Shown one piece after another: positions 1-63,228 of a stretch of 64,000 nt of DNA. The stretch spans positions 155,124,001 through 155,188,000 of the forward strand of contig CM097885.1 in NCBI GenBank assembly GCA_044892525.1. The letters are read 5' to 3'. The stretch comes from Schmidtea polychroa (taxonomy: Eukaryota). Every line of letters starts with the position of its first letter. Position 1 is the first letter of the stretch. Under the pieces are notes generated by a model. That model was given only the letters and a program-made list of their open reading frames with translations. It was not told the DNA's origin and did not search any database. Both the position numbers and the translations under genes were made by a program.

Positions 1-289
1 AAAGTTCAATTTTAATGAAATAAATTTAAAGTCACCCTTACTGCTTTAGTAAGTAATACCCTAAAAATGGGTAATTTACATTTTATAAATTAAATTTAAA
101 GTTCAATTTTAATGAAATAAATTTAAAGTCACCCTTACTGCTTTAGTAAGTAATACCCTAAAAATGGGTAATTTACATTTTATAAATTAAATTTAAAGTT
201 CGATTTTAATGGAATAAATTTAAAGTCACCCTTACTGATTTAGTAATTAATACCATAAAAATGGGTAATTTACGTTTTATAAATTAAAG
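1..289. repeat. 97-bp tandem repeat, ~3 copies, truncated at window start
   Basis: AAAGTTC(A/G)ATTTTAATG recurs at 1, 98 and 195 with near-identical units. Confidence 0.9.
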
Positions 290-340
290 CTAACATTATT
301 CATTTTAGAATCCGTTGTTTAAGTTAATTAAAATTTTAAT

Positions 341-375
341 TTGTTAATTGATAGTATTAGTAATGATAATAATAA

Positions 376-407
<32 letters not shown>

Positions 408-548
408 AATTAATAGCATTAGTAATGATAATAATGATGGTAATGATAATCGTAATGATAATAACAATAACAATTTTTAATAATAATGATTATAGTAATA
501 GAGATAGTAATAATAGTGATACTTTACCAATAATAATAATGATAATAC

Positions 549-587
<39 letters not shown>

Positions 588-650
588 GAATAATCATAAT
601 CGTAACACCAAAGACAATACAACAGCAATGTTAATAATGGCAATAACGAT
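341..650. repeat. (AAT)n-rich low-complexity tract
   Basis: Long AAT/TAA runs; they explain the poly-N/poly-I ORF at 341..634. Confidence 0.85.
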
Positions 651-699
651 AAGGTTAATCCTGATAAAAAGTGTAAGTTTTATGCAGTGGGTAATAGAT

Positions 700-1240
700 G
701 TATAATCCAGGGGGGTGTTCATGAAATTATTAGTTTACCATTTTAAAGACTAAGTATATATTGAATAGGTTACTTTCAGATATTAGTATAATAGATAATG
801 AAGGTAGGATTCAGGGGGGGATGTTTATGAATATTTATAAATTAGTGATTCCATATTACATAAGCTAAATATATATAAAAATAAGTGAACTTAGGACAAT
901 TAGGTAAATATATAATTTAGGGGCTAATTATGTAGATTTATAAATTATCATTTTAACATTTTGTAAGTTGAATATATATCAAAATAAATTAGGATATCTA
1001 GGTATTGGACGATAGATATATAATTCAGAGGATCATCTATGAAAATTTATAAACTATCATTTTTATATTTTATAAGTTAAATATATATACCCAAATAAGT
1101 TAGGATCTTTCTATATGAAAATTTATAAACTGTCATTTTAATATTTCATAAGTTAAATATATACATCAGAATAAGTTAGGATATTGATGAATAAATATAT
1201 AGTTCAAAGAACCATTTATGAAACTAGGTAAGTTATACAT
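700..1240. repeat. Degenerate ~100-120-bp tandem repeat inside family I element
   Basis: Recurrent (T/C)AGGGG...TTTATGAA...TTATAAA...TAAGTT...TATATA units; the same unit type is at 6312-7728. Confidence 0.6.
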
Positions 1241-1639
1241 ATTCCAGTGGGGTTATAACCATGAACTGGTGGTTTGACGACTTTGTGACATTGGCAAGAA
1301 AGATTACCTTTTCTTTAAGTTTAATATACCGCTATATGCAATTACATACTGATGGTAATGACACACTCTCTATGAAGACAACGAGAAAAGGGTGTTGAGG
1401 ATAATGATAATAATCCTGGAGGTGATAGTACTATTAAGGCAAAATAGAATTCTTAAGGATTTCAATACCCGTAAGGTAAGTATAAAGACTTGTAATTAAT
1501 ACATCATTGAACGTGATTAGATTATCTTTAAAATCGAACATAATTATGAATAATATCAATAAAATCTAATAACAATAGTTAATATTGAGCATATTGAATA
1601 ATAGTTTGTGCAATTAGCCGACTACTTGATAACTTTTGT

Positions 1640-2000
1640 GATAAATTGAGTCTGGGATCTTTCCCGTTTAGCTGTTCCTAATGATGTATTTCCTATAGAA
1701 TATTTGAGTGTGTAATTTAGATGTGTCGTTTACCGGAAGGTCGAATTAATTAAAATTTTCCTACTTTCCCGATTCAACTGAATACGGTACGATAGGCCTT
1801 ATTGTAATATGTTTCCCGCGATTACTTACCCGCATTTTATTTCGTCCGCATAGTCCCTGTGACTATGTTTACTACCTGGATGGATTTACCGCCCTACTCC
1901 TGGTTAAAAACCATTTGTTCGTGGCGACCTTCCGGTTAAAAAATTGAAATTTAGTGCATGTGAGGTCGTAGACCCGTATAGTGCATGTGAAATAATTAGT
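1640..2000 (-). ncRNA. Conserved structured block A (putative cis-acting RNA), copy 1
   Basis: Direct repeat of 15920-16280. Stem CATAGTC/GACTATG (1849-1867) is invariant with a variable loop; a compensatory T-A to C-G change is seen in CCGATT..AAT(A)CGG (1769-1787). Strand inferred from the upstream TATA box. Confidence 0.5.
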
Positions 2001-2108
2001 GGGAGCAAGGCTGATCAGCGTCGTGGATGCCATCCGTTTACGACGACGCTGGTCACTCTTGTTCAGTAATAGTAAAAAAATCAACAAGATAAAAAATATA
2101 ATAAACAT
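1872..2108 (-). CDS. Small ORF: hydrophobic N-terminus followed by RRRKR (putative membrane peptide)
   Basis: MFIIFFILLIFLLLLNKSDQRRRKR from ATG at 2108, just downstream of the family I TATA box; may be non-coding. Confidence 0.25.
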   Translation of the reverse strand: MFIIFFILLIFLLLLNKSDQRRRKRMASTTLISLAPTNYFTCTIRVYDLTCTKFQFFNRKVATNKWFLTRSRAVNPSR

Positions 2109-2216
2109 AATAATAATGCAAAACAAATAAAAATGAAATTAATCAACAGTCCTTACTTTCAGTGTTGTCCAAAATTTCGGTAAAAAAAATTTTTGGCATA
2201 CAAGAATATCTGAATT

Positions 2217-2263
2217 GTGACGAAAATGCGTCGGTATATATACCTATTTTGTACACGTGTATG
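2217..2263 (-). promoter_or_regulatory. Putative Pol II promoter of family I element
   Basis: Minus strand ACACGTG..GGTATATATA..TTTTCGTCAC, homologous to 17224-17270 (ACACGTC..CTATATAAA..TTTCGTCAC). Confidence 0.5.
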
Positions 2264-2863
2264 TATTGATGCATTAAAACAAACTCGAATTCTTTTTATT
2301 CCAGAACTTTCTATTTTGTAATTTTGATATTTTTAATGGCGATTTTTGCGTCATAATTTTTATTTTTATTTTTAAAATTTTATTTCCTAAATATTTTTTG
2401 CTAATTTTTCCTCCATGATGGATTTGGAACGGTTCCAGAACATTCCATATTACTTTTAATTCAATTTTTATTTTTAACTGATATTCTACGAATTTCTTTT
2501 TAAGAAATTTTATTTTTAATACTAATTTATTTATTTTCTACATTTTATTGTTTAAGGTAGCTTTTATGATGGTCATCGCCATTTTTATGGAATGTTCTGG
2601 GTTTTTCGGGAATTTTTTGCTATTTTTACCATCTTTTAAGTTATTCGAGTTTGTTTTTTGTAACTCTGTGTTTATTTGGCTATTTTGAGTTAGATTTTGC
2701 ATAACTTCTTGTTTTTGTATAATTTTATTTAATTTCTGTGTTTTAGGTTTTGTTGTTTTCTCCTTTAATTACTATTGGTTATTTGGTGTAGTTTTTAATA
2801 TTTAACTATACTTTTTGCTTTTTACATGTTGTGTACCTACGCATTTCAGTCACAATTAGAAGT

Positions 2864-2893
2864 TTGGGTCTAGAAATCAGTTCTAGCCCAACA
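2864..2893. repeat. Terminal hairpin of family I element
   Basis: TTGGGTCTAGAA-ATCAG-TTCTAGCCCAACA, near-identical to 17315-17344. Confidence 0.7.
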
Positions 2894-4849
2894 AAAGTAA
2901 CGAGAAACGTGGAGTTGAACTACTCCATGTCATGGTGTGAGGTGCCTTCGGGAGCTCAGCCGGTGGACATGGAGTTTTTCAATCACGCAGCTAGATTGGG
3001 CCGAAATGTGAAGGCTTCTTCACGGGTCCAATTGCTGAAGGTGCGACTAAATTATCACAATGGGATATTGTTCAAGGAATAACAGGCAGACAATGATTTC
3101 ACAGAGATGGCCGTATGAACGGAGGGATTTTCGAGAATTCGCACAGTGATTGAGGGCGTCGCATTATTCTTTCATCAAGTCGTTTTCGTAAAGCTTACGC
3201 CTATCGAAAATTGAAATCCAGACAATGATTTAGTAAATTTCGTCAAAGGTAACGTCATCTCATAGTGCACTTCATCTGGAAACATGGTTTTATCAAATTG
3301 ATTATTACAACGTCTATTTTCCGAACTCAGTAAAACTAATTTCGTATGAAATTCCGTTATCACACATCCAATGTCCTTTAGTCTGTCCAGATTGCAAGTC
3401 ATGTTCCAAAAGTTTTCTAAAACTGTAACTATCTCAAAACTATAAAATGTAAGAGTCTACGAAAATCCTTCTAATATTATACTCCAAAATTATTATAAAA
3501 ATTTAATCATTTATAAACAGATAAAATACCAAAATTCCATCTAATAATATTTATTGTTACAAATGAGAACTAGGCTTTCACTTTGTCTACCCGAATTATT
3601 GAACGTATAACACTTGAGGGAAAGTTGCGAATGGCTAAGAGCAGGTTCCATCGAAGCGATATTTATTTTCGAAAACAACAACTCGACATCACGTCCGTAC
3701 AGCATATTGAATACATCGAGATAGGATCAAAATTGCAAGAAGCATAGTAGCCTGCCAAACGAATAAATTCCAACAGTATAATAAGAGAGCTGAACGTTAG
3801 AAAATTTCTTGTCGTTGGCTTCCATCGATCGTTTAGATAGTCAGAAAAAACCCCAGTAATAATGACGAAAACGAGAGAATCCATGATGAGAGATCACCGT
3901 AGCATAGATCAACGATTTTCTGAGACTAGTCATACGGTGAGAGTAGATTATGTGAGTAACCGGTTAGCGATAAAAAACATATTGAATAAGATAACCTCAC
4001 GGAATTTGCAGTGAAACGATCAGCAGCACGTTGACAGAGTAGGATACACGCGACAGATAGACATGCATGTCATGTAACCGACATTGAGAATACACACACG
4101 AGGAAGATAAGGATCTTCAACCAAAATACCGATTCTGCCATCTGATATAACGACATGAATTTTTCACAAGTCAATAACAGACAAGTGGTAGTGAATTGGC
4201 AGTTGCCTCGAGAGAAATGAAATCCATGTGTCCATTCCGCGCATGTTACTAAGATAGGAGTTGAGTAATATTGCAGTGCAAACTGATTAGATAATCCATA
4301 GTCGATATTTTAAGGCGTAAAAAATTCACCAAGCTCATGTACAGAATAATTCACTAATTAATCATCTCGAATGCTTAAAGTAACATAAGATTTAGGTGCA
4401 AAAATTCCCTCTAGAAATGGTAGCCATCGAGCGTAATAAATGATTTACCATTTTTAAAATGAATTATGATAACGGGGGGTAATAACATTCCTATTCAAGA
4501 TCGTTCTAATATTACGATTTCCTGATTGTATTAAATGGTATAAATTATATCGACCAACCGGTATCAGAAATGACAAGAAGATGGTTAGGATTTGTAAAGG
4601 TACCCATGAACCTGTATTAATCGAATTGCATTCGTCAAATCAGTATAGTTTGGTTGAGTAAAAATTTTTATCCGTCAAACTAGTATTATTTAATTGAATC
4701 AAGTAATTTTGTAAATAATTTAAATCGACGTGTAAGGAGATTCATTTTTGTTTATCGGCCGAATATCCACGAGCAGTCGATTATTCGTATTCCACGTATT
4801 TCTTCAACCATACATATATTACGTCTTAACCTTATTCTTTATAGCGAGC

Positions 4850-5599
4850 ATGATACCAGCTACCAAACCCGCGTTACGTCCGTGCTTCTCTTGCGCGGAT
4901 AAAAACGTCATTATCAAAGATCTGCAAACCCAGATTGGACGTTACAAAAGGAAGATAGACGAGCTGGAAGGGACATGGTTTAGTCCCGCTCGGATGAAGG
5001 AGACCCAGAAGAAGCTCTACCGGAGCGAGCACTGTCGAGATGCTTTGATCGCTGAAAGTCGCTCCCAGAGGAGCTTGATCAAGGAGCAGTCCGAAGCACT
5101 GCATAAAGTTTATCTGCAAGCAACTACCACCCGGAAGATAGTAAAAATCCCGATCAAAGACGCCGACGAACTCTTTCCGGCGCACCATGATATTTCGTCA
5201 AAATTGTCGTCTCCTGCCAAGAAGTCCTGCAAGGAATGCGTAGAGACCCAGCTCTCACCCAAACAGCCAGATATCATTTTCATGGGTACAAGTCAGGTAT
5301 CCCTGGTGCTCGCCTCTACGTCTAAGGCGATTCCGACCAACACAGCAACATCCAAACCGAAACGTCGGCAAATGTCTAGGGCTGAACGAAAAAGAAAACA
5401 ACGAGAACGGATGGTTGCCAAGTCCAATATACCCCTATCGAACCTCGTAGATGTAGTCAACGTTCCTTCGGTAACAGTAGTCCCCACATCTGAAGTGACT
5501 GGGCGAATTATCTCTGCCGCCGGAATCACTTGGGAAGAGAACGCTTCCGAGTTTTTCGACCTCGAAGAGCTGTTAGCCGCCACTGAGTGGGAGAAATGA
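4850..5599 (+). CDS. ORF-X copy 1: unknown ~249-aa protein (CxxC, coiled coil, CxxC, basic NLS-like tract, acidic-hydrophobic C-terminus)
   Basis: First ATG at 4850 within ORF 4748..5599. About three-quarters identical by eye to 8292..9059 over the N-terminal ~150 aa, with many synonymous differences. Confidence 0.75.
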   Translation: MIPATKPALRPCFSCADKNVIIKDLQTQIGRYKRKIDELEGTWFSPARMKETQKKLYRSEHCRDALIAESRSQRSLIKEQSEALHKVYLQATTTRKIVKIPIKDADELFPAHHDISSKLSSPAKKSCKECVETQLSPKQPDIIFMGTSQVSLVLASTSKAIPTNTATSKPKRRQMSRAERKRKQRERMVAKSNIPLSNLVDVVNVPSVTVVPTSEVTGRIISAAGITWEENASEFFDLEELLAATEWEK

Positions 5600-5899
5600 G
5601 AATACCTTGTGGGATAATTCTGCCGATGGCGAAATCAACGAACTAAAATCATGGTGTTGTGTTTTTCTCATCTGGTCATCTTATGCTGTATACACTTTAC
5701 GGATATTGTATAGATATGATATTGCTACAAATAAATCTTTGCGTCTTGGTACCAGTTCGTTTTATAAACGGTATTAGTATGACAATAATAACGAGAGTAG
5801 GAAGTTTTTTTTTTGTTTTGTTTTGTTTTTTCGAGATTTCAGTAGAATTAGCTAGTCGAATCCCAACCAAAGATAAACAGTGAATTTTTAACTTGGATG

Positions 5900-6140
5900 G
5901 ACGTAAGACCTTCTATCGGCAGTCGAGGATGGTAAGTCGAGGCCTCAGTAAGGAGTAGTTCTAAGGCAGGGGCTCACCTGCTTACTGGCGTCTCGCCGGC
6001 ATGGTACAGTACCAACGTGAGGTGTCTCACGGGTATCATGTTGGAGGGAAGGTTATGCGGGGCTCTGCTCAGGGTTGACACCGTGGTGACCAAAATAATC
6101 GTACTGGACATTCATCTCCTAGACTAGAAATTGGAATTGT
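5900..6140 (+). other. Conserved block D downstream of ORF-X
   Basis: CGTAAG..TTCTATCG(G/A)CAG, AAG(G/A)AGTAGT and CAGT(A/T)CCAAC shared with 7780-8010 (rc) and 18905-19080. Confidence 0.6.
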
Positions 6141-6311
6141 GAGTGGTNNNNNNNNNNNNNNNNNNNNNNNNNNNNNNNNNNNNNNNNNNNNNNNNNNNNN
6201 NNNNNNNNNNNNNNNNNNNNNNNNNNNNNNNNNNNNNNNNNNNNNNNNNNNNNNNNNNNNNNNNNNNNNNNNNNNNNNNNNNNNNNNNNNNNNNNNNNNN
6301 NNNNNNNNNNN

Positions 6312-7728
6312 GGGAAAGTTATTTATGGAAAAATTATAAATTATAGTTTTATAAATTTGGTATCTGTACATATATAAGTTAATTTATTACTATAAATATT
6401 GTTTTCGACTATTCGGTAACTTAGGGGGGTAGTTAGGGAAAATTTAATAATTTATAATTTTATGGATTTATTTTCAATTTATAAGTAATTTAAATCAGCA
6501 CTCTTAAAATTAATTTGAGCTATCATACTACTTAAGGGAGGCACCTATGAAAAAAAGTAAATTATACTTTTATAAGTTTAATATGCTTATATATGCTTTA
6601 TATTATTAACATAAGCCCCTTTTGATTATGATATAACTTAGGGGGATACTAATGAAAGATTACAAATTATACTTTTATAAGTTCAAATTATGCAATTATA
6701 GTTTAGAATATTACTTTGAACATGTGTTTTGGCTATTTAGGAAAATTTTAGAAATTATAGTTTTATGAGTTTATTATACATGTATGTATTTTAGATTAGT
6801 ATTTTTAACATTGATTTTGACCAGAGGTGGGGAACCTGCGGCCTTTTGGCTATTCTAGTGCGGCCTTTTGAGTAATACCGATTTTTTTATTTTTTGGTAA
6901 TTTTTTGTGTGGTTTCACTTTACGCGATCGAGAAAAAATGTTTATGATGCATATGAAAGGTTTACCGATTTTGAAAAAAATGAAACAGCAATGAAATTGG
7001 CGTTTCAGCCTCACCTAGTTGAAATCAACGAGGCACCTATAGATCTACAGATGGAATTAATTGAACTCTCTGTTGATGATTTTTTAAAATCATTGTTTAA
7101 TACTAAAAAAAACCCAATTGAAATTTGGAAAACTGCTTTAGAATATCCACGTCTTCGACAACATGCCAGAAAAATGCTTTCTTGCTTCTCAACAACTTAC
7201 TGCTGTGAATCATCATTTTCTTATTAAACGCAAATAAAGTCCAAATTACGAACTCAAATAACTGATCAACATTTAGAAGACCAACTGATACTGCGAACGT
7301 CTATGCTTGAACCGAATATTCAAATGCTTTCTAACAAAAAGCAGAAGCAAATAAGCCATTAAAAGTTGATAAATTGAAACATTAACAAATATTTTTAATG
7401 ATGTACAATGTATATATGTATTATGTTTTATGTATGTATAACATTTTTTTAACAATATACAATATAATAAATTAGATTTGTAAATATATATTTTTTTCAT
7501 AAAAGATTATTTTAAATTGCGTTTTGGCTAATTTATAATGTGAATTAAAATAAACAGTTTATAGGGGGGGGGGGGGGTTAACGTTTTATTTACTGCGGGC
7601 TTATGTTAAATCAGATAAGTGAAAGTGGCCTTTTGAAATGAAAAGGTTCCCCAGCCTTGATTTTGACTATTATACAACTTGAAGGGAAAAAAATAAAAAT
7701 TTTCTTAGAAAATTAAAATACATACTTA
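6312..7728. repeat. Degenerate tandem repeat of the family I type, interrupted by a hAT MITE
   Basis: TTAGGGGG...TATGAAA...AATTATA..TTTTATAAGTT units similar to 700-1240. Confidence 0.55.
6822..7659 (+). mobile_element. Non-autonomous hAT (Charlie/SPIN-type) element with transposase C-terminal fragment
   Basis: TIRs CAGAGGTGGGGAACCT / AGGTTCCCCAGCCTTG; perfect 8-bp TSD ATTTTGAC (6814-6821, 7660-7667); hATC-like motif STTYCCESSFS followed by an in-frame stop. Confidence 0.9.
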
Positions 7729-8291
7729 TGTTGCGGGTATCTACTCGGACGACCCCCTTTTAGTACAGCTTTTAGTCTAGAGGATGAATGCCCACATCGA
7801 TTACGCTCGTCCTTATTTTTGTCATCGCCGAGCAGGACCCGTACATAACCTACACTCCAACATAGCACCCGTGAATCGCTTCACGTTGGAACTGTGCTAT
7901 GCCGGCGAGACGCCAGTAAGCAGGTGAGCCACCTCCTTCGGACTACTCCTTACTGAGGCCTCGACTTCCTAACCCTGACTGCCGATAGAAGGACTTACGT
8001 CTAATCATTCCGTCGCCCCATCGCAATGTTTCTAGTTGGGATTGCCAACTGACTGATGCTCCTCGTTTTCTGCGACTCTCAATGCTATTCACCAATTTCA
8101 TATCAACTGTCTTAAGATAAAACAAAACACGTATGCAGACGAAAATGGTTTATTGTTAGAATTATTATACAAATATATCGAAAACTTATACAACAAAATT
8201 CACAAGAACAGGAAAAAACACAAGGATAGAAAATGATATCAGAAGATGTTCAGGTCTCTCTAGAGGATGAGGCCATTTTACGGGGAAGTTC

Positions 8292-9059
8292 TCATTTTCC
8301 CCACTCCGAGTCGGCGAGTAACTCGTCTAAATCAAAAAATTCGGCGGCGTTTTCTTCCCATGTCACCCCGGCGGCGGAGATGACTCGCCCTGAGATTCCG
8401 GTGGTTAGATCGACTACGGTTGGGTTGCTGTCGCTGTCGACTGGAGTGACGGTCGATGGTATAATCTGTTTGATGGAAGCCCGCTCTCGTTGCTTTCGTT
8501 TACGTTCGGCGCGTGACAGCTGCCGACGTTTAGGTTTTGAAGCTGCTGGTGTTTGCACGGTTGATGAAGATGCGATGTTTGACTTGCTAGTCCCGGTAAA
8601 TACAATATCTGGACCTCTGGGAGAAAGCTCGGTCTCCACGCACTCACGGCAAGACTTCCCGAATGGAGATGAAGACCCGACAGAGGTATCGTGGTGCGCT
8701 GGGAAAAGATTACTGGCTTCACTAATTGGGATCTTTGCGATTTTCCTAGTGGTTGCTGCTTGGACGTATAATTTATGCAGCGCCTCCGACTGCTCTTTTA
8801 TTAAGCTTCTCTGCGCCCGACTCTCGGAAATTAGCGCATCACGACAGTGCTCGCTTCGGTATAACCTCTTCTGAGTCTCTTTCATCTGAGTGGGACTAAA
8901 CCATGTCCCCTCTAACTCGTCTATCTTTCTTTTGTACTTTCCGATTTGGGCCTGCAGATCTCTGATGATTGAATTCTTGTCTGAACAAGAAAAGCAAGGT
9001 CTGAGAATGGTCTTGGAATTGGGTAACATCTTGGGTAGCTGTGAAGAAAAGATGGACAT
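8292..9059 (-). CDS. ORF-X copy 2 (255 aa)
   Basis: Open frame homologous to 4850..5599 (RPCFSC, GTWFSP, RSEHCRDALI, SRAERKRKQRER, WEENA.EFFDL.ELL). Confidence 0.8.
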   Translation of the reverse strand: MSIFSSQLPKMLPNSKTILRPCFSCSDKNSIIRDLQAQIGKYKRKIDELEGTWFSPTQMKETQKRLYRSEHCRDALISESRAQRSLIKEQSEALHKLYVQAATTRKIAKIPISEASNLFPAHHDTSVGSSSPFGKSCRECVETELSPRGPDIVFTGTSKSNIASSSTVQTPAASKPKRRQLSRAERKRKQRERASIKQIIPSTVTPVDSDSNPTVVDLTTGISGRVISAAGVTWEENAAEFFDLDELLADSEWGK

Positions 9060-9349
9060 GAAAAATAAATTAAATCAATTAGAAACGTCTTCATCTGGTC
9101 ACCTTTATACTTTACTGATCATAGATAGTTTCGCAGACAAAGTGGGTTTATTAGCCGAAGGAATTCCCCTACGTTATGGACTTGTTGTTCACCTTGGGTC
9201 ATTATTTATAAGAACATAAATCAGTCAAGCACGATTTTACACCAGGGAAGTAAGGTACTACTACTGATAAGAAAAATTCTAGGTCGAGGAAATTACGATT
9301 TGGTTAATTCACTTGAAGATAGCAAATAGCATTTGAAGAGAGTTGAATC

Positions 9350-12300
9350 CAGGCCCGACGCTAGAGTATTTGGCGCCCTAGGCAAACTAAAAAAATGGCG
9401 CCTCTAGTCTAGAAACAAACCCAATAATTAAAGAAGTAAATGAAAATAAAATAACTATACTTCATTTATTTATTACACAAAAATATATATAAAAACAAAA
9501 ACCATTTAAAATTTAATTTTTCGTGCTTTTAGTTTAGCGAAATCTTCAAGCAGCAACTTCGTATCTATATCACGCGCCATTTCGTGTTCAATCGACAATA
9601 TTGCTAATCCCACAAGCCGTTCTTGTGACATTGTAGATCTTATATATGTTTTGATCTGTTTAAGCTTCGAAAAGCTTCGTTCACCGCTTGCCACAGAAAC
9701 TGGTAGGGTTAATAAAATTCGCAAAGCAACAAATATATTTGGAACGCTGTCCACTATATTATTTTTACAAATATAATTAAGTACATCTTCCGGCAATAAG
9801 TTTTTTGGAATATGTCTAGCTATAAATATCAATTCGTTCAATAAATCTGTACCATCAATATCTTTAGAATCATCGTGCCGTAAAAAATTTTCAAGTTTAA
9901 GACAATCCTCTAATATTTTCTTTGACGAAATATATTGCAAATTATGTATGTTGTATAGAAATCCAAATGTTGAATTTATCGTTGACATTTGGGTGAATCT
10001 TTGCTCAACAGATTTTTAAGCTCTATCCAAAACTGCGAAGTAAAAGCTGATCTTAAATTTTTCTTTTGGGTTCTGAATGGGCTCATCGTTGGCTTCATAT
10101 TCGAACTGTTTTTTTTGTTTTCTGATACGCTGAGTTTGTTTAAAGATTGGGGAAATTTCTGATTCTTCAGCAAGTTCTCGCGCATCTACCAATATTCTTT
10201 CAAAACCTTCATCATTTCGGGAGTTGAATAGAAATTTTTGGTATCTTCTAGTAGCTTCATAGCATCTTGAATATTAATTTTCTCAGATTGAAGTTGTTTG
10301 CTTGTAATATTTATGTTGAAAAGAATATCATACCAGATAATAACAGAAACTACAAACTCGAAATTCGAAATAGCTTTAGCAAGGCCCTGTGCTTCTATAC
10401 GTGAAGTATTACCAGAAACTCCTGTTTGAGAAGTATCTTGAAAAATATCAATAAGTGCAGCAATAACTTTACTTAGCTGATAGCGTAGAGGTTTAAGGGC
10501 ATCGATTCGGCTCTCCCATCTTGTATCGCTCAATGGCTTCACTGTCAAGTTTGAAGCATGACGTTTTAAAACTTCCCATCGACGTGTTGAAGCGGCAAAA
10601 TAGACATATATTCGTTGCACTAACATAAAAAATGATGTAGCATCTAAACAACAGCTTACAGCGTCATTAACAACCAGATTCAAAGAATGCGCAGAACAAG
10701 GAACAAATAGTGCTCGTGGATTTAGATTCAGAATTCGCCGTTGCACGCCATTTTCTTTGCCTTTCATATTGCTACCATTATCGTATCCTTGGCCACGCAA
10801 GTTCTCAATAGGTAATGACATATCTGCTAACATCTGAACGATTTCATCGGTCATACCAGCACCAGTTGTATCTGTTAGTTTCACAAATCCCAAAAAATGT
10901 TCTCTTATGCATATGGGATCTAAATCACAATTTTCTGTATTTGTATGGACAAAACGAATAATCAACGTCATTTGTTCAGTATGGCTAACGTCTGGTGTGC
11001 AATCCAGGATTATTGAAAAATATTTAGCCATGGAAATCGATTTTAAAATTTTTGTTTTAATACTCTTAGATAAAAGTTGTATTAACTCATTCTGAATATC
11101 TTTTCCCAAATAATGAACTTGTGTTTCATTGTTCTTTATTCTGCGAAGATGCTCACCCATAATTGGATCAAAAGAGGCCAAATATTCTACAAAGCTAAGG
11201 AAGTTTCCATTTCCAGGAGAATACAATTTTTCATTGCTTCCGCGAAATGCAATATTTTGCGTAGCAAGCACTTTAACTAGACCTATAAGACGCTCTAAGA
11301 CTTGTTGCCAGTGTCTCTCTTCTTGTTTTATGAGACGCAAATTATCCTGGTCAATAGTTTTATTCTTTTTTAAACGCAATTCTAGCTCCTTCCAAGTTTG
11401 AAAATTAATTAAATGATCCTTATTTTTCTCATGTCTTTCTAAAATTACAGACATATTTTTCCAATCGCTTGATCCTTTATCGGAGAGATGTATTACACGC
11501 TGGTTATTATTAAAAATTTTGCAACAAAAGCAGAAAGCCGAATTAGTTGTTTTGGAATACTGTAGCCAATGACGCCGCATTTCTTCTCCATTTGCAAGTC
11601 TCCTTCTATAAAAATTCATTGAAAATTTTCTATGGCTCTCATTTTGAGGAAAATCAAATTCTTCAATTTGTTCTGGTCCGTGTTCAACCAAAATTTGCCT
11701 CAAACGGCCAGAACGTAAGTCATGTGAATTTAACCAAGTTGCCGGATCACTATAATCAAGACTCGAATTTACGCTTTCTAATATTTCCAAAGTTTCATTA
11801 ATTAAAATTTCTTCAGTGTCTTCTATAGTTTCTAATACAATTTCTTCTATAGGTTCTTCAACAGTTTCTTCAATTGTTTCAACTTCAGTTTCTTCTATAG
11901 TTTCTTCCACATTCGTATGTGGAAACTCAGTCAAAATAGGCACCTCTGCATTTCTAGTTGTAGAGTTCCTATCCATTTGCTCTTCCAAATTGCAGTATAC
12001 TTGTTTTCTCGGAGTCATTTCATTTCGATTTTTATCTTGTGATTGTTGACGACAAATATATTTCAGAAAAGCACCTTCTTGCTTTTTTTCTTCATTTTTC
12101 TTTTCAGCTTTACGTTTTCTATTTTGTGCGCCAGATAATTTTTTTCTATCTGCCATTATGCTACCTCAAGTAAAAATTAATAGAATATAATAGATTTAAT
12201 AATAGGTGTAGAAAAATCCAATATAAATTAAATTACTGTGTTGTATATATGTAAAAATTATACTGGAAGTACGACCGAAATTATATATACTTTAAATAAA

Positions 12301-12901
12301 AAAAATTTGAGCCCTGCACTAATTAAATTTTATTTTTTTTTTCACTTTCTGTTTATTTATTTTTTAACTTTTTTAACATTTACTTTAGTCTTTTAAAACT
12401 TTACTGCATGTGACTTTATTCTTTTAAAATAAAACTAAAAATTATTGCGTAATTTAAAAAAATTTCAGAGCATGCTATATGCTAAATTTTTTTTAAAACC
12501 GCTTTTCAGTTAACTTTTTTGAACTTGCAAAATATTTTTTTAAATCGATTTTCCGTTGTATTTTTTTAAATTTTAAAAGAAATAAGTAATCGGTATCGGA
12601 CTAAAACAACGATGNNNNNNNNNNNNNNNNNNNNNNNNNNNNNNNNNNNNNNNNNNNNNNNNNNNNNNNNNNNNNNNNNNNNNNNNNNNNNNNNNNNNNN
12701 NNNNNNNNNNNNNNNNNNNNNNNNNNNNNNNNNNNNNNNNNNNNNNNNNNNNNNNNNNNNNNNNNNNNNNATCAATATAAAGATAGAAAGTTTATAAAAT
12801 ATTTAATTTACTTGATAAAAAAAGCAGAACTATTTGGCGCCCGCTTGTAAATCGGCGCCCTAGGCTGCTGCCGACGTCGCCTATGCCTAAAACCGGGCCT
12901 G
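9350..12901 (-). mobile_element. hAT transposon (ZMYM1-like/DUF4371 type) inserted in family II copy 2
   Basis: TIR CAGGCCCG / CGGGCCTG; perfect 8-bp TSD GTTGAATC (9342-9349, 12902-12909). Confidence 0.95.
9506..12156 (-). pseudogene. hAT transposase, disrupted
   Basis: TTF-type zinc finger (FCFCCKIF), IILDCTPDVSH, GQGYDNG, CSAHSLNL, DTRWESR, SGERSFSKL. Frameshifts at ~10230 and ~10110 and an in-frame stop near 10020. Confidence 0.9.
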
Positions 12902-14149
12902 GTTGAATCAAATTACTGACTTATCCCAAAACAAATAATTTCGATGTGTAGATCTTATACATAGGTCGATTAATTTTAGATTAATTATTTAAGGTAAATA
13001 GGAATCTGTAAATTGCTCTTGAATAGTTTATGTATGATAAACGGGAATTTATTAATTAATTTTCAATTATTTATTTATTATAAACGAAAATTTGTCAAAA
13101 TTGAATAAATAAATTAATTAATCCCACTAAGGGGACTCAAAAGGTCTGTCTGACCGCTGACTATTATTTCCGACCGGTGGGAATCTAGTGGCTGTCCGCG
13201 GTTTAATTTGATAACTGAAAATTCCAGCTGACACGTCCGGTCTGATTTTCTACGAGTAATAGTCAGTGTAAATCTACACACTGCGATTAACCGCTGTAGT
13301 GAGTCTAAAACGTGTGACGCCTGAAAATTTTCTCTCACGTACTTATCTTCAATCATAATCACTGACTGGTGTTCTCAGTCTGGAATCTATATCGTGTGCC
13401 TATGTAATCCTGATTGACCAGCTGCGTAAATGCTCAAACTCCACTTCACACGATGTTGGCATGCTATCTCTCACGGAAATTTTGGAAAATTACGATTCCT
13501 TGCATTGCTAATGTTGGATATAATTTGCTCCGAGGATGGATTATGCGACCACTCAAATGCTATTTATCAATCCGTTCCCGACGATTTGGAAATTTATTGC
13601 CTATCTCATCGCTGGGTTTTTCAACTCAATGAAATGCAGATATTTTACATTTAATAAGTAAGAATTATCATGCTAAATTGTTTTTTAGAAAATATATTTT
13701 TCCGGACTAGAGTTATTTGCATTGTACGTTTAAAAATTATTTGAAACTAATCATTTTATGTAATTCTAAAAATTATTTGAAACTAATCATTTTATGTAAT
13801 TCCCTACAACTACACCTTTAAGAGAACATACAGATGATGAAAATAACAGTTACGAAAGGTCGTAGGCTGAAAATTAGTAGGAATAAATTTCGAGGGTAAA
13901 ACATGAACACCGATGGTATGTCACATATAGTGATACTAATGTTTGAACGGTTTTGACAACACAAAAAAACTTGCATAGATCGTTGGGATGATAGAGAAAA
14001 TTTGAGCTTGGTAAAAACGATATCGTGATACGATAGTGCGACACCCTCAATCACTGCGCGAATATATAAAAACTCTCTGATTCATTTATACATCTCTGTT
14101 TTCGATCGCTGTATGACTACCAATTTTCTAGCAAAATTTTTCTATAGAC

Positions 14150-14300
14150 TTTAGTCGCACCTTCAGCGACGGACCCGTGAGGAAGCCCCCACATTACGGC
14201 CCGAATCAGCTGCGTGATTGAAAAACCCCATGTCCACCGGCTGAGCTCCCGAAGGCACCTCACACCATGACATGGAGTATCTCAACGCCACGTTTCTCGA
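14150..14300 (-). ncRNA. Conserved UUCG-capped hairpin C, copy 2 (copy 1 at 2900-3050)
   Basis: CTCCATGTC...C-TTCG-G...GACATGG(A/G)G; the 52 nt are identical between copies except one change that keeps a G-U pair. Confidence 0.5.
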
Positions 14301-16350
14301 AAATTTAAGTAGCATTAAATAATAATTCATAAAAATCAACAATTCATAAAAATCAATAATTCCTAGAAATCAATAATTCATAGTCAATCATTTATTGTTA
14401 AATAACTAAATCATTTAATTAAGCAAAGTATTTGAATCAAGCGAAAAGAAAACAAGTTCTTTAAATTAAAAATATAATTAGTTCATACGCATAACTATTA
14501 CTTAAAAGTTCAACATATAAAATCAAAAGATCCTTACCGAGTGTTTAATATGAGTATATAGGCTGAGTCGAAAAAGTACTGGGTCGAATTAATTAATGCT
14601 CGAATATTGTATAGATTCAACTGAAATTTCTTGGATCCTGAAATAGTCCTCGTAAGTTGCTCTGAGTTGGTTGTTTAATTGTGAGTTGCTGTTTCTTCGG
14701 CAAATTTATCTATTGAAGTTGTTAGATTAACAGTAATCATTATGATTTTAATGCCTGCTTATATATTAATTTTTTGTTTGCGCGGACCAATCAGAATTGA
14801 GTACCGCTTAATTTTACTACTTTAATTTATTTTTCTTGTTTTTGAGTTATTTCTTCCTATTTTCTTTATTTTTATTGTGTTTTTATTTATTTTCCTTAAT
14901 TTCCTTATTATCTACTATATTTTACGTTATTTTTCGTCATTCTATTGTCCTATTTTAATTGTTCTTATTTTTATATTTTTTGTTTTAATTCTTATTTTCT
15001 AATTATTGCTTTTTCTTATATTCTATTTTATTTTATTCGTCAATCTATTTATTTTATTTTTTTATTTTACTTTAGTTAAGTTTAACCTGATTTCCCAGCT
15101 ACCCTTCGGCTCAGCCCAACACTTAAGAGAATCTAGTATATATAATTTATATATATAATCATAAGGTTTTTGTTATTGCTACACCTCTTAGGGGTGGGAC
15201 AGTTGTACCTGAAAGTCTATATTTTCCTTGGTTTTGATTTATGCTTTATGTTGAAATAATATTTATGCTTGCAAGTTATCCATGTAGCCTTGTTTTAGTT
15301 ATGATGGAGAACACTTTTACGGTAGATCGATTTTGTGGATCCCTACATCATATCTAGAGAAAATTTATGCCTGTAAAATATCATTTCAACAACTTTTGAG
15401 ACGAATGAAAAGAACTTTCAATGGAAATTTTTTTTGTTATGAATCTATATATTGTAATTACATAACATTTGTGTCGACAATTTACTTTTTATAGCTATTC
15501 AACTTAGTATAGAATAATGTGAAGATGTTGCCCGAATTTATAAGTTATAGATATAATATTAGTAGTTTATAGATAAAGAAACTTTGTCAATATGTTGACG
15601 GGAATTTTGCGCATACCAGAACCATCTACGATAGAGAAATTTAGTTTGCATCAAAATAGGTTATTTTGTGGGCATCTATAGATATTAGTTCGCTTACCAA
15701 TGCGATTGAGATTATATCATCTTAGGTCCTACTCATCGCATGAACTTTAGGTTGCAATATTCTGACAGGAAATAGTTCAGAATTTTTAAGTCTTTAAATG
15801 CCTTAAAAATCTTTGCGCAGGGATCTCCCTGTTATTTAGAGTTAATTAGTTTCTTAGGTTCACTTTGACTTTATCGTTTAAGAGGGATTCGTTTAGAAAT
15901 TACCAGCTACACTAACATGTTGTATTGTGTGAAATTTGAGTCAGGGGATATTTCCCGTTTATCAGTTACCAATGTTGTGTGCAAAATAGTATAATTTAAG
16001 TGTTATTCTAGATATGTAAGTTAACGAAAAGATCGATTTAATTAAAATTTACCTACTTTCCCGACTACACTGAGTACGGTACGATAGGCCCTATTGTGTT
16101 ATTTACCCGCGATTAGTATCCCAAAAATTGTTTCGTCCGCATAGTCCCTACGACTATGCCAACTACCAAGAAGGATTTATACGCCCTACTTCTGGTTAAA
16201 CACCATTTGTTCGTGGCGACCTCTGGCAGTTGAAATCATTTTAATGCATGTAAGGTCGTGGACCCGTAATCATTGTGATAAAGTGCATAGATGCAGGGTT
16301 GACTTGTATCTCGCTCAAAAATCAATGATAACCGACGATCTCACTCAAAC

Positions 16351-16938
16351 CTACACCTCTATAATCAAATAGAAATAACGAAAACAACGTTTCAATAATT
16401 TATAATTCACAATGAAATCGTCCTTACTTACAATCCCAGAAAATCTCAAAATCAAAATCAAAATGGAACCTGTATCATTAGCTGCGATGATTTTCTGGAC
16501 TTGAAATTTCTCAATATCTGCCTCATTTGCTGGTGGAGGACCACTCTGTTCAACTTGATTCATAATACTCGTTAGAAAATTGTCGAAACTTTGATCTAAA
16601 AATATGTAATCTGATGAATCGGATCTAAAATCCAGCGGCAGCAATCCACCAAATAAATTTGATATTAGTTGGCCAAAAATACTATTTCTGTTATCAGGAT
16701 CTCTTGGAGTCATAAAAAAGGAACCATCAGTTTCGTTTGTAGTACTTCTATTTTCCATTGAGTTATCACGACTAATATGAAAAGCATTCAAGGCATCATC
16801 ATCATTTTCCATTGAGTTACCATGAATAATTCTTTCAATAAATCCATCATTGCACGTCACACATTTACCATCCTGAGATATGTGAACGTCCCTGTTGCAT
16901 TGAATATCATAGTAATTATCTTTATTAATTGAAGTCAT
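16351..16938 (-). CDS. Intronless RNF126/RNF115-like ORF with degenerate RING
   Basis: N-terminal zinc ribbon YYDIQCNRDV..KCVTCNDGFIE; SDY..LDQSFDNFLTSIMNQVEQSGPPPA; the RING start reads GIVSKDDF instead of CxVCKDD(Y/F), with the later Cys/His ligands missing. Confidence 0.7.
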   Translation of the reverse strand: MTSINKDNYYDIQCNRDVHISQDGKCVTCNDGFIERIIHGNSMENDDDALNAFHISRDNSMENRSTTNETDGSFFMTPRDPDNRNSIFGQLISNLFGGLLPLDFRSDSSDYIFLDQSFDNFLTSIMNQVEQSGPPPANEADIEKFQVQKIIAANDTGSILILILRFSGIVSKDDFIVNYKLLKRCFRYFYLIIEV

Positions 16939-17223
16939 TAAAGAACCAAAATCCGAATATCAATTTTATTAACCTTCGCGCAAATTCAAATTCACAAAAA
17001 CCATTTTTAAATTTAAACAACAATTCTACCAAACTTCCAGAATTCGAAAAACTCCAACCATCCTAAAATCGATACAAATCCAAATCGACACGACAAAACA
17101 CAAAACCTGACTAATAATTCGACACAGTTGTCCGCGTCTGTGTGCGCACACAAATCAAAAACAAAAGCGTAAGAAAGCGCACACAGACACGAGAACCGAT
17201 AATTAACCAGTAAGCATTGAAAA

Positions 17224-17270
17224 GTGACGAAATGTGTTAGTTTATATAGCCTCTGTTTGACGTGTAAGTA
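17224..17270 (-). promoter_or_regulatory. Putative TATA promoter upstream of the RNF126-like ORF
   Basis: CTATATAAA followed ~24 nt later by TCAC; homologous to 2217-2263. Confidence 0.5.
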
Positions 17271-18337
17271 TACATGCGTGTTGTGTACTGACACATTTCG
17301 TCCCATTTCTAACTTTGGGTTTAGAAATCAGTTCTAGCCCAACACCTCTCATCAAAACCAAAAAAGAAAATATGTCAAACATTCAAGAATCTGAAGCCTT
17401 TGTTTTCCTAGCTGTGATATCTCTGTTGATGAGCTTGATCATGAACACCTTCTATTCCATCAAAGAAAATTTCCTCAGATTATTAATTCGCGATTCTAGT
17501 GATTCTCCTGATATAGTTTGTTACGAGAACCGGACTGACCCATCCGTCTTCATTCAAAAGGAGTTAATGAACAAAGTTATTCCAAATAAAGATTCCAATA
17601 CTTTGACATCGCACGTTACTGGAGTCTACATGCCCAAATGCAAGTTCATCAACAATCTCAGTACAATTGCCAGATCAAGAGTCTATGCTTTCCTGTGAAC
17701 ATTGACTGCTGGAGCAAATATTTCCATGATCGCTTTCAATGTCGTTTACAATAAAAACTTTATTCAAATTACTAATTAGTTCATGTCCTTACAATGTGTG
17801 CTGTGTTTATATGTAAAATTATTATTCTGCCACTTTCTCAATTTCTATATAAAAACTTTTAAGTTTTTACACGCATGTAAGTTTGTGTGTTCCTCTACTA
17901 TAACTTAATCATTTTTTTATATTACAACTACTGCCAGTTGGAGTGATGAGCCTTGCAGATAAATAAATTTTCTGATACCGCGTCTTTACACACGACACAC
18001 CTTGAAGGGAATGGAAACCAATAAAAATAAGATAAATTGTGCGGAGCATGAAATGCACATTAACTGTCACCTTTCATTAATTAAAACTCTCTAAGCAAGG
18101 ATCATTTCTGGAAAATAAATTTATTTTGTTTATTTGATCATTTATAAATCAATATCCCTTCACTCGCTCAACACCTATGAAATCAATAACGTCTCCCATA
18201 GGGCATAATTTTGGCTGTTAAGCAGGGTAAGTTATCGAGAATGAGAAGGAATGACGGATGGGATTTTATTTATTTTTGCTTATTTTTGGTTATAGTGACA
18301 GGTCCATCAAAGAGATTTAAACTAAACGCATGATACC

Positions 18338-18810
18338 AAATTAAAGGATCAAATCAGAAATATCCAGACTGAACTCAAGAAGACTATCTGGTTCACTCCC
18401 CAGTAAGTTCACGTCCCACAACAGAAAGTCTTTAGTCTGAATAAACTCGAGATAGACTCGTCACAAAGAATAGAGTGCAACGGTTGCTAATCGGCGAGCA
18501 AAGTAGGGCCCTCGTGGCAGTGTTTACTGAAAACGAGCTAAAGTGTCTGATTTCGAACTTGAAGATGGTAGAGACTTGTAACGTGATACTCATCAAATAA
18601 ATCCCGGATGCTCCGCCGCAAAAAGATGTAGTACCAACCATAATTCCGTTGGGAATCCGCAAAGGGATATAACCGTGTAAAGGGTGACGCATGAGACGAA
18701 GGAGGAGACTGAAAAAGCAAATCCTACAGAACCTGTATCCCAGAGGAGAAACCTGGAGTAAGGCCAACGAGGAACGAAGTAAGCTGGACGACTTTAAGCT
18801 GGGACTTTGA
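18338..18810 (+). pseudogene. ORF-X copy 3, disrupted
   Basis: KLKDQIRNIQTELKKTIWFTPQ*, then in another frame RDRLVTKNRVQRLLIGEQSRALVAVF (cf. RDALIAESRSQRSLIKEQSEALHKVY), basic tract RRRRRLKKQ and GETW; stops and frameshifts. Confidence 0.65.
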
Positions 18811-19084
18811 TTTTTGAAAATGATAATGCGTCAATGTTATGTTAAAAAATATGATTGGGTATGACTAAAGGGTTAAAGCAGTAAGTAAATACAATTTGTG
18901 AGCTAAGCAGCGTAAGCCATTCTATCGACAGCTAGGAATCCGAAAGTGAAATAGCAATAAGAAGTAGTTCTGGCAATGAAACTAACCTGGTCATTGATTT
19001 TCGGCCACTATGCACAGTACCAACATGGTAGTTTCCATGAGTATATGGATGGTAGATAAAGATAATAATCACGAAGGCAGTTAA

Positions 19085-19317
19085 CCCTACACTGCATGAC
19101 TTTTTATATTTGATTTCACTTAAACTGTAAGACGTTTTAAAAATTGATTTGGTAATACAAAACTATTGAGAATTACATTACGGTTTTTTTGTATTATATT
19201 GCAAATATAGCCAATACAATGTAATATGAGAGAACATTTACCGAGAACAAGAGCGAGACAGTTTTTATTCTAATAAGATAATTGTGTATCACCAGTGATA
19301 CAATATGCAGTGTAGGG
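19085..19317. mobile_element. piggyBac-type MITE (233 bp)
   Basis: TTAA|CCCTACACTGCAT ... ATGCAGTGTAGGG|TTAA. Confidence 0.9.
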
Positions 19318-20145
19318 TTAAGGAGGAAATGATGATAAAAATACACCCTAAGTACCAACAAAGTATTTTTTTAAATATATAATATTTTTTGAAATTTTTA
19401 TTTTGGAAAAATTTACTTTTAATGTCTTTGTTAATCATATGCTGTTATTATTCAGACATCAAGGAAAGAAAATATGACTACCTGACATAAAGTAATGATG
19501 TGCGTGTAAGGGTCAATAATAAAGGCCAAAACCAGAAATTTACAAAGGAATACATGTTATATTGTCAAATTTTATAAAAAATGTATTTTTGGCTGAAAAT
19601 GTGTCTGCATAAAAAATTGACAGCAAAACGCTAAATTTAAGTGCAAAATAAGAAAATTATGATTTTTTAACATAGAAAAATGAGTAGCATTTCTAAATTA
19701 TCGATAGGCTTCTAAACTACTTCGTTGAATGAAAAATGCTTCAGTTAAAATTGTGCAACCAAATCAATATCATTTTAGTGGTATTTGTGATATTCAAGAA
19801 CTTTTCCACAAATAGATTTTTAAACATTCTGTAACTCGATTTTTCACATTTTTAGAGATTTGTAGCAAATTGGTTGCAAGCCGAAGTTTGCTCATAACTG
19901 AATAAAATAAATCATTTGCCACAATTACTGGTGACCCTTAAGCACTCCGGAAGGGACCAATCAAGTGACAATAATAAATGATTCACGAAAAGTCCCCTTA
20001 TAAAAATATTAAGATAACATTTCATAAATATTATACCTGAACTCACAGAGAAACTCTAAAGGAAAAAATATCAATACAAAATGCTCCACCATAAAAAATA
20101 TTGGAAAATCTAATGGAAAAACTCATTGGTTTATTAAACAAATGT

Positions 20146-58994: not shown

Positions 58995-59050
58995 TTACAT
59001 AATATATTTAATTAATCCTATTTTGTGTGTGTAAATTTTAATATATAAAA

Positions 59051-60337
59051 ATGAATAATATAAAAATTCAAGAAAAAAATAAATTAAATCTTGATTATAA
59101 TAAAGAATTTACTCATGAAATCAAGAAAAACGATGTACTTAAAATCTCCCCAACTTCAGGATCTATTGCAAACTTAAATCGTAGGGGTGATATAGTTTTT
59201 CAATCTCTTCAAACATCAAACCCTATAGATATTTGTAATGCCAAATTATATTATAAAATCGAATTAGAAATTGAAGCAAACAAAGATATAACCCTAGAAA
59301 ATAATTTCTTTCCAAATTTATTCTCCAACATGAGATTAAAACTAGGATCATCAGAAATTGAAACTGTTTTGCATCCGGGAGTATATTCTACAATGTTAAA
59401 TTTTATTTTGACTGGTTGTGATTATAAAAATGAATATGGTGAATTAACAGGCTGGATTCCTGATGTTAATAAAGGAGATTTAGATAAAGATGGATTAGAT
59501 ATAAATTATGGTTACTATAAAAGAGCTGAACTTTATAAATCTAAAAAATTTGAAGGTTATTTTGAATTAAAACACTTGTTTGGATTCCTTCAAAACTATA
59601 ATCGTATACTTCATAATGTTTTTATAGAATTAGTTTGTAATAGAGTAGAAGGTGATAAAAGATTGTTGTATGGAGATAAGGATACAACAGCTAAATTAAA
59701 AATATCAACACTTGAATTGCATATACCTGAATGAACATTAAATCTACATTCTGAAATCAAACTCCCTGAAAGATTAAATTCCAACAAGTCTATAAATGTA
59801 AATTATTTAAATAGAATCTGTAGTGAATTTAGTATGACAGAGGGTTCAACATATTCTATAAAGGTAGCAAATTTAGCATACCGACCAAGATATATCTTGA
59901 TTGGATTCAAAGAAGTAGATTCATCTTTCCAAAAAAATAACAACTTGTTTATTCAAAAGATTGGAGTTGATAATTTAAAAACAATCCAAATTCAATTAAA
60001 TAGTTCTTATTATCCAATAAATAGAATGGAATTTAATATTGAAAATAATGAAAACATATTCCCATATCTAAATTATATTGAAACATGTTATGATTTCAAA
60101 GTTGAACCGCAATTAAGTTTAGAAGATTTAAAAAATTTATATTCTATATTTTGTATAAATGTTTCAGACCAAGATGATCGCCTAGCCATAAATAATGTTG
60201 ATGTTACACTTCATGTAACAAAGGATTCTAATTTTAAAGCTAAAGTATATACATTAATATTAGAAGAAAAGAAAATAGAAATGAAATTATATGGTGGAAA
60301 GATTTCAATAATCGAAAATGTTAGGGGAGATTCTTGA
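59051..60337 (+). pseudogene. Double-jelly-roll major capsid protein (Polinton PY/hexon-like), one in-frame TGA at 59732-59734
   Basis: LENNFFPNLFSNMRLKLGSSEIE..PGVYSTM and RPRYILIGF..IQLNSSYYP..FCINVSDQ match Polinton MCP patterns; the frame continues through the stop. Confidence 0.8.
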
Positions 60338-60366
60338 TATAATCCTTGATATTTTAACATTTTAAA

Positions 60367-62567: not shown

Positions 62568-62582
62568 TTTATTTATTATAAA

Positions 62583-63206
62583 ATGACCTCGAAGAGTTCC
62601 TCTACTGAAGAATCTTTGCAAGAATTAATAAATTCAAATAAAAATAAATCAGTAGTAATTGATGGTAAAAAATATTTTATTGGAAAACATGTAAAAGAAC
62701 AAGTTAAAGAACGTATAGGGAGTTCCTCCAAATCCGGTGGCATTCTTCCATTAGCTGCTTTAATACCTGCAATCATTGCCGGACTATCAGGTGCTGCTGG
62801 AATAGCTGGAGGAATTGCAACTACAGTTCAAAAAGCTAAAGAATCTCAAAAGACAGACCTAGAAAAAGAAAAACTACAAACTGAAATCGATTCAATGAAG
62901 AAGGTAGGGCAAGCTAAAGGGGGAGTGTCCGTTGGAAAAGGCCTCTATCTTAATCCATATGAGGGGACTCTGTCTGAAGGTCAAAAGTCTCAGGGGACTC
63001 TGTCCAAGGGAAAGGGTCTCTATCTTGATCCTTATAAAGGTAGAGGTTTAAATGATTTTTTAAAAAATCAAATTTCTACATCTGAATCTTTATCTTCAAA
63101 AGATAAAGATGATTTAAAAAAAATATGTAAATCTTTAAAGAATGGATGCCTTTGTAAAACTAGAAATGGTAAAGGTTTATACTTGAAGCCCTTCGAACCC
63201 CATTGA
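62583..63206 (+). CDS. Adenovirus pX (mu)-like core/membrane-active protein with GKGLYL repeats
   Basis: GGILPLAALIPAIIAGLSGAAGIAGGIAT resembles adenovirus pX GGILPLLIPLIAAAIGA..GIA. Confidence 0.7.
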   Translation: MTSKSSSTEESLQELINSNKNKSVVIDGKKYFIGKHVKEQVKERIGSSSKSGGILPLAALIPAIIAGLSGAAGIAGGIATTVQKAKESQKTDLEKEKLQTEIDSMKKVGQAKGGVSVGKGLYLNPYEGTLSEGQKSQGTLSKGKGLYLDPYKGRGLNDFLKNQISTSESLSSKDKDDLKKICKSLKNGCLCKTRNGKGLYLKPFEPH

Positions 63207-63228
63207 TACCATTTTTAATACCATAAAA

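Follow-up and report, generated by a model that had tools for sequence, protein, structure and literature searches.

What does the protein encoded by ORF-X do for the DNA that carries it? The question arises in a 64,000-nucleotide stretch of the Schmidtea polychroa genome (the window), where the original prediction described two intact copies of this open reading frame (ORF) and a distant decayed one, recognized no known family, and proposed a nuclear zinc-binding dimer with an acidic activation motif, functionally similar to the Tax/Tas/Rev-type regulators. The copies are as described: two open frames are 68% identical and the third is homologous by profile (table 1). Copy 2, given earlier as 8292–9059, most likely starts at the ATG at 9029 and not at 9059, because the putative splice acceptor lies at about 9039. 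The setting was absent from the earlier reading. ORF-X sits within the long terminal repeat (LTR) of a giant Burro-like Ty3/gypsy element, with an LTR of about 4.2 kb and a total length of 26–30 kb.

Table 1. Features of the window discussed in the text; positions are counted from its first nucleotide.
Feature	Position	Strand	Remarks
LTR-B, about 5 kb, of a second giant gypsy family	1..2893, extending upstream of the window	-	inserted reversed into LTR copy 1; the off-window part bears ORF-Y
LTR copy 1, 3' ~3.3 kb of a ~4.2-kb LTR	2894..6147	+	92–95% identity to sister LTRs
Block B, two adjacent covarying hairpins	2908..3037	+	in the putative intron of LTR copy 1; candidate response element
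Polypyrimidine tract and YAG, putative splice acceptor	4826..4844	+	5 nt before the ATG of copy 1
ORF-X copy 1	4850..5599	+	open frame, 249 aa
AATAAA, putative poly(A) signal	5730..5735	+	downstream of the copy 1 stop
Block C, conserved structured RNA	5900..6050	+	3' of the poly(A) signal, in putative U5; common to LTR-B and copy 3
LTR copy 2, solo LTR	7729..15121	-	matches full-element LTRs at 78%; 4-bp target-site duplication, identical on the two flanks; split by hAT
ORF-X copy 2	8292..9029	-	open frame, 245 aa counted from the ATG behind the acceptor
hAT transposon	9350..12901	-	DUF4371 match; 8-bp target-site duplication; inside the putative intron of LTR copy 2
Block B, second copy	14164..14292	-	within LTR copy 2
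CCAAT–TATA promoter with cap-proximal unit, in LTR copy 2	14700..14795	-	sequence motifs; single unit
ORF-X-family copy 3, decayed	18338..18810	+	frameshifts and stops; profile E 1e-11 in one frame
Block C homologue	18900..19080	+	behind copy 3

The element that carries ORF-X

At least 150 copies were scored in a genome search with ORF-X, from 6,662 first-look candidates; 128 of the 150 scored matches have no internal stop. Many of the matches form same-strand pairs 15–29 kb apart. In all five pairs that were fetched, ORF-X is present in both of two direct repeats of 4.1–4.2 kb, which are 99.9% identical, and it matches these two LTRs only and no internal ORF. The four elements with inspected ends have TG..CA termini, 4-bp flanking duplications and a primer-binding-site-like motif, which we take to resemble a tRNA-Pro site. 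Two of the five fetched elements carry a polyprotein frame of 4,732 codons, with Pfam matches above the cut-off for Retrotrans_gag, CCHC knuckles, a viral fusion glycoprotein, protease, reverse transcriptase (RT), RNase H, integrase and ankyrins; an accessory ORF downstream of the polyprotein has RING-TRAF/MATH matches, likewise above the cut-off. There are three more accessory ORFs 3' of the TRAF ORF (368, 232–253 and 219 aa; loci L033–L034), none with a Pfam family above the cut-off. The last of them (219 aa) is 35% identical between clades, a divergence as fast as that of ORF-X.

Burro and GYPSM1 are giant gypsy-like planarian LTR retrotransposons (PMC6431247, citing Grohme 2018 and Jurka 2007). 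The present element is the same in its length of 26–30 kb, its single polyprotein of about 4,700 aa (gag, CCHC, a fusion glycoprotein set in frame between gag and pol, protease, RT, RNase H, integrase, ankyrin), its TRAF/MATH accessory ORF and its high copy number; the Burro-like assignment rests on this anatomy as described in the text of PMC6431247 and not on the sequence of the named Burro-1 to -4 or GYPSM1.

The window holds two LTRs of this element. The first ~840 nt of LTR copy 1 are found 2.7–1.9 kb upstream of the window (L111:7297-8132), and its final ~20 nt fall under N. LTR-B separates the two parts; the blocks at 1634–1978 and 2827–2893, considered as parts of the ORF-X element, belong to LTR-B and were rejected. 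LTR-B contains a long hairpin of its own, and its first 70 nt form an inverted repeat with its TATA region (window 2009–2070 and 2200–2860, minus strand). Several LTRs of the family hold a reversed Burro-type LTR about 700–880 nt from their start (window 2893/2894, window 17344, L053 and L064), a possible insertion hot spot. Twelve of 20 single ORF-X loci are solo LTRs flanked by a 4-bp duplication, one is a 3' LTR, two have mismatched flanks and five could not be scored.

Other features of the window include a Polinton/adintovirus-like cluster at 59042–63990, with a double-jelly-roll capsid, PLA2-like plus integrase, and an A32 ATPase; similar clusters appear to be nested in two of the fetched giant elements. 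Host exons are represented by a paired-box (PAX) exon at 45693–46040 and a RhoGAP exon at 23166–23696, both on the minus strand.

Conservation and architecture of the protein

Selection was analysed by Nei–Gojobori counts on 81 intact frames (240–262 aa), retained from 104 non-redundant motif-bearing frames after 23 were dropped. Between ORF-X subfamilies dN/dS is 0.04–0.17, in the 15 of 28 pairs with unsaturated dS, in agreement with the purifying selection that the original prediction expected between copies; for copies 1 and 2 of the window dN is 0.254 and dS 3.3. Among five regions, pN/pS is lowest in the basic tract (0.056), followed by N-terminal residues 9–100 (0.09) and the C-terminal tail (0.13), and the linkers are the least constrained (0.40 and 0.66). 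Changes private to one copy are less constrained than shared changes (0.29 versus 0.14, p 2e-5, for copies picked for being intact), a pattern in line with selection acting during replication. These data show ORF-X to be an element-encoded gene for a strongly conserved protein under purifying selection. Domestication by the host was considered and rejected: the copies are dispersed, the LTR pairs are recent and private changes, in the intact copies, are the less constrained ones.

A second ORF-X clade, 30–38% identical, is carried by a backbone with 94% identical protease–RT. The motifs described earlier as invariant are so in the clade of the window only. The divergent clade has LEHCRD in place of SEHCRD, CxxH in place of the second CxxC and, where the window clade has its TWEENA tail, a different acidic-hydrophobic helix; in the alignment the first CxxC is also absent from distant homologues and from ORF-Y (see below). 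The invariance of T42, W43, P46, H61 and C62 is partly built in, since the extraction pattern demanded these residues; the alignments of the divergent clade, the distant homologues and ORF-Y do not rest on that pattern alone.

AlphaFold2 places helices at residues 15–39 and 46–98, a disordered middle, a basic helix at 177–192 and a short tail helix at 238–243, in a model with mean pLDDT 62 and pTM 0.25. Two copies of residues 8–115 are predicted to form an in-register coiled coil with a score of 0.55, against 0.01 for the best control. Of the reference cases, 21 of 30 solved pairs, seven of 16 animal pairs and none of 23 single chains reach this mark; generic likeness may by itself give a long coiled coil the score of a dimer. 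The runs agree on at least 91% of contacts, pLDDT is at least 77, and Cys12 and Cys15 fall at the predicted interface. The core of ORF-X is thus predicted to be a coiled-coil dimer broken by a TWFxP kink and followed by a basic helix, whose tract contains 4–5 Lys and 5–6 Arg. The dimer of the original prediction stands in this form, but its putative zinc ligands and acidic tail are clade-specific and do not belong to the core.

That ORF-X belongs to no recognized family, and is neither a host nor a gag protein, agrees with all of the searches. A word-indexed search gave no match among 712 candidates; the Pfam matches are sub-threshold only; no match in a PDB sequence search is under E 0.77; the best ESM Atlas match (0.81) is at most a lead; and Foldseek, queried with the pTM 0.25 model, gave no match at E 0.001 in PDB and viral libraries.

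Relatives were found in two places. The first is the second giant family, whose polyprotein is about 55–59% identical over env–pol and whose LTR contains ORF-Y, with an acceptor-like motif before it and a poly(A) signal and block C homologue after it. ORF-Y matches the ORF-X profile (E 1.3e-6, probability 90.6), at least 150 copies of it were scored, and two copies compared have dN 0.17 and dS 0.89. It has neither the acidic tail nor CxxC. Its residues before the first Met are conserved, and there may be an upstream coding exon. LTR-B also contains ORF-Z, a second ORF of about 153 aa that lies 5' of ORF-Y and has its own acceptor-like motif (L125, about 5616–6095, minus strand).

The second place is the protein databases, where 18 of 1.84 billion proteins were matched in an HMM search. 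Of the 17 inspected, 14 have, next to the match, a Pfam domain unrelated to it, and are apparently chimeric gene models. These fusions of host genes with ORF-X are probably annotation artefacts from intronic solo LTRs, and real exonization is possible; the strong acceptor of ORF-X would in the former case already be corrupting gene models, most of the 17 being such chimeras. With two of the database homologues as queries, the closest match in this genome is about 44% identical. The distant homologues have an Arg-rich tract after the same core, and one of the 17 matches Pfam REV at 19.1 bits, below the cut-off of 22 and on low-complexity sequence. The core shared by the whole family consists of a coiled coil, a TWFxP-type kink, a second coiled coil, PxHH and a basic tract. 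Zinc binding was rejected as part of this core, since the CxxC pairs are not common to the distant homologues and ORF-Y.

Gene signals and RNA structures of the LTR

In all 81 intact copies a YAG follows a pyrimidine tract 0, 3, 5, 8 or 9 nt before the ATG; because these spacings mix phases, the upstream exon would be non-coding. AATAAA is present 125–150 nt past the stop in 60 of the 81, and the other clade mostly has weaker hexamers at this place. Upstream, a CCAAT + TATA pair is found 2.0–3.3 kb 5' of the ATG in 45 of the 52 copies whose flank is long enough. A donor follows some 55 nt further on in 43 of them, only two of which have an ATG within exon 1. Such a pair is close to ORF-X in only four of 79 copies. 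Taken together, these motifs make the LTR look like a self-contained gene, with a promoter, an exon 1 of about 25 nt with its donor, an intron of about 2.4 kb, an acceptor and a poly(A) signal. The promoter of the LTR itself is likely to drive ORF-X expression, through a short spliced mRNA. Contigs of uncertain kind from four of 12 runs lack the joint of exon 1 to ORF-X among the 15 of 27 joints inspected, which weighs neither way; in one of these runs there is a 48-nt skip at the duplicated unit described below, indistinguishable from a DNA variant.

A unit of about 25 nt, starting some 26–31 nt after the TATA and ending at the donor, is repeated 45–54 nt later in 60 of 69 LTRs; both LTR copies of the window have a single unit. 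The first and second units of one copy are identical at the median, compared with 54% identity between copies. There are 29 distinct versions of the unit among 61, and in 58 of the 61 no unit matches better than the second one of the same copy. The duplication was not seen by eye in LTR-B. The cap-proximal duplication evolves in concert, and it hints at an R region of about 3.3 kb. Unit 1 would be the exon from cap to donor and unit 2 the end of a tiny intron, the GT..AG ends of the skipped piece being partly built into the search. If strong-stop DNA is made on a spliced 5' end, it would anneal to unit 2 of the 3' R, rebuilding the intron and overwriting unit 2. Such a model would explain why the homology starts at the expected cap site, and it would imply that R measures about 3.3 kb. 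Alternatively, the tandem units could be homogenized by misaligned template switching between them.

The extent of R depends further on a TGT(A/G)TA motif about 37 nt before AATAAA, TATA-like in 46 of 79 3' regions compared with 14% of shuffles. It could be a second TATA box, which would leave R short and place ORF-X in U3. The motif also fits an upstream poly(A) element, however, and it is degenerate in several subfamilies and not at that place in the inspected copies of the other clade. We consider a long R region somewhat the more probable arrangement. The concerted duplication of the first exon provides a sequence-level handle on the copying of a very long LTR.

Two structured RNAs accompany the gene. 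In block B, two-sided changes occur in 15 of 51 pairs and 97.8% of cells are paired. None of 500 shuffles scores as high, a control that kinship among the copies can inflate, and slid controls fall to 38–47% paired. The block covaries with G–U pairs on the sense strand and is located between donor and acceptor; it would consequently remain on intron-retaining RNA only. The RRE is likewise kept only on intron-retaining RNA, in the same geometry. At the corresponding position the divergent clade carries another covarying hairpin (two-sided changes in 10 of 28 pairs), whose model has no match in the window or in seven loci of the window clade. Block B is a candidate response element. One RNA per protein clade amounts to two data points and falls short of shown co-evolution. 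Block C differs in position, being 3' of the poly(A) signal (table 1). An Rfam search of window 1–20000 gave no family, and hammerhead or other ribozyme identities for blocks B and C were weighed by eye and dropped.

Possible roles and known systems

In the favoured but tentative proposal, which we hold to be plausible but rather short of probable, ORF-X regulates the intron-retaining genomic RNA and is Rev-like in logic. The element needs an RNA of about 26 kb in which the LTR intron is kept and which extends past the first poly(A) signal, while the spliced form would give only ORF-X. ORF-X would be made early, from a short spliced mRNA ending in the first LTR; its dimer would bind the intronic RNA structure through the basic helix and would favour the making or the export of the intron-retaining, read-through RNA, as an early/late switch. 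Solo LTRs keep the entire unit and could supply ORF-X in trans. In favour of an RNA regulator are the location in the LTR, the low pN/pS of the basic tract, the gene signals, the covarying block B, the predicted dimer and the Arg-rich homologues. A dimeric basic protein from a spliced RNA, together with a clade-specific intronic structure, follows the logic of Rev-like systems, and the gene geometry leans slightly towards a role at the RNA level. The basic tract may, however, be only a nuclear localization signal. The pattern of a canonical leucine-rich export signal, which would miss non-canonical signals, is unmatched in the last 40 residues of 77 of the 81 copies; this argues against Rev-like export and, together with the lack of homology, sets ORF-X outside the Rev family.

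The acidic-hydrophobic tail retained in the two local clades is just as compatible with an activation domain, which counts against the RNA-regulator reading. ORF-X could activate transcription from the LTR promoter in the manner of Tas or Tax: its dimer would attach to DNA or to a host factor, and its acidic C-terminal helix would bring in co-activators. This we regard as possible, on present evidence rather unlikely. The tail is constrained, Cys12 and Cys15 at the dimer interface and the basic helix at 177–192 would suit such a protein, and the zinc-binding acidic activator of the original prediction survives, in weakened form, as one of two live readings. However, ORF-Y has neither the acidic tail nor CxxC, the distant homologues lack CxxC, PDB sequence and Foldseek searches gave no DNA-binding fold, and the intronic RNA structures are left unexplained. 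The wider class of Tax/Tas/Rev-type regulators is retained as the likeliest for ORF-X.

An unlikely reading makes ORF-X a host-directed effector, an anti-silencing protein or a modulator of immunity or apoptosis with a Nef/Sag/VANC-like role, placed in the LTR for early and solo-LTR expression. ORF-X diverges much faster than pol (38% identity between clades against 94% for protease–RT), the element already holds ankyrin and RING-TRAF/MATH modules, and planarian PIWI silences BURRO1, as stated in the available text of PMC8532177. Yet all measurable dN/dS values are below 0.2, with no sign of positive selection, synonymous sites are near saturation in pol too, and there is no host-derived domain. 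A structural or replication helper (a particle component, or an RNA chaperone for very long strong-stop transfer) is improbable: the long coiled coil and basic helix are compatible with it and an R of about 3.3 kb would be unusual, but Gag already has zinc knuckles, and a regulator agrees better with expression from a short spliced RNA of its own and with the long disordered half of the protein.

Burro elements are already known; the LTR-internal gene, a putative regulator, is the new part, subject to the original Burro descriptions. The LTR ORF, spliced gene, structured RNAs and duplicated cap-proximal unit are absent from the account of Burro in the text of PMC6431247, in which the ORF drawing of figure 2A may include an LTR ORF. 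An LTR-internal gene of Burro elements is not described in the available portions of PMC6431247, PMC8532177, PMC13238120, PMC11410931 and PMC13524379; Grohme 2018 and the Repbase GYPSM1 entries may bear on the point. If the proposal is true, a protein of viral type could be produced from hundreds of solo LTRs in an animal that keeps stem cells as an adult.

The Rev-type export proteins, among which Rec is counted, are a close parallel to the regulation of intron-retaining RNA proposed here. Rev-like proteins carry CRM1-dependent export signals, according to the available text of PMC3856414. Like Rev, Rex and Rem as presented there, ORF-X would combine a short spliced mRNA, a basic helix, a predicted multimer and a structured RNA on intron-retaining transcripts (PMC3856414). 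Unlike these and Rec, it has no sequence or fold relationship found with them and no canonical export signal, its gene lies wholly in the LTR and its host is a Ty3/gypsy element. MMTV sag and lentiviral nef are accessory ORFs in or overlapping retroviral U3 and are expressed by splicing. ORF-X is similarly an accessory ORF in LTR sequence, probably expressed by splicing, but it is unrelated in sequence, is a soluble coiled-coil protein and is placed by the promoter-like motifs about 2.4 kb past the main TATA of the LTR, and thus likely in R and not in U3.

For the acidic tail and nuclear signal, HTLV Tax is the system of comparison. ORF-X resembles it and foamy virus Tas (the latter in the available text of PMC3856414) in its possible acidic activation tail and basic nuclear signal. 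It differs in having no homology to either, in that the Tas and Tax genes lie between env and the 3' LTR, and in that its own role in activation is putative. Complex retroviruses are characterized by regulators that act in trans on cognate RNA elements; to our knowledge no such regulator is established for Ty3/gypsy elements, and none appears in the titles and abstract openings of the literature searched. It is conceivable, if doubtful, that a Ty3/gypsy lineage independently evolved the switch of complex retroviruses inside its LTR, with an R of about 3.3 kb containing a spliced regulator gene and a clade-specific RNA target, solo LTRs as stand-alone sources of the regulator, and a tiny cap-proximal intron rebuilt in each cycle by the annealing of strong-stop DNA to the second unit.
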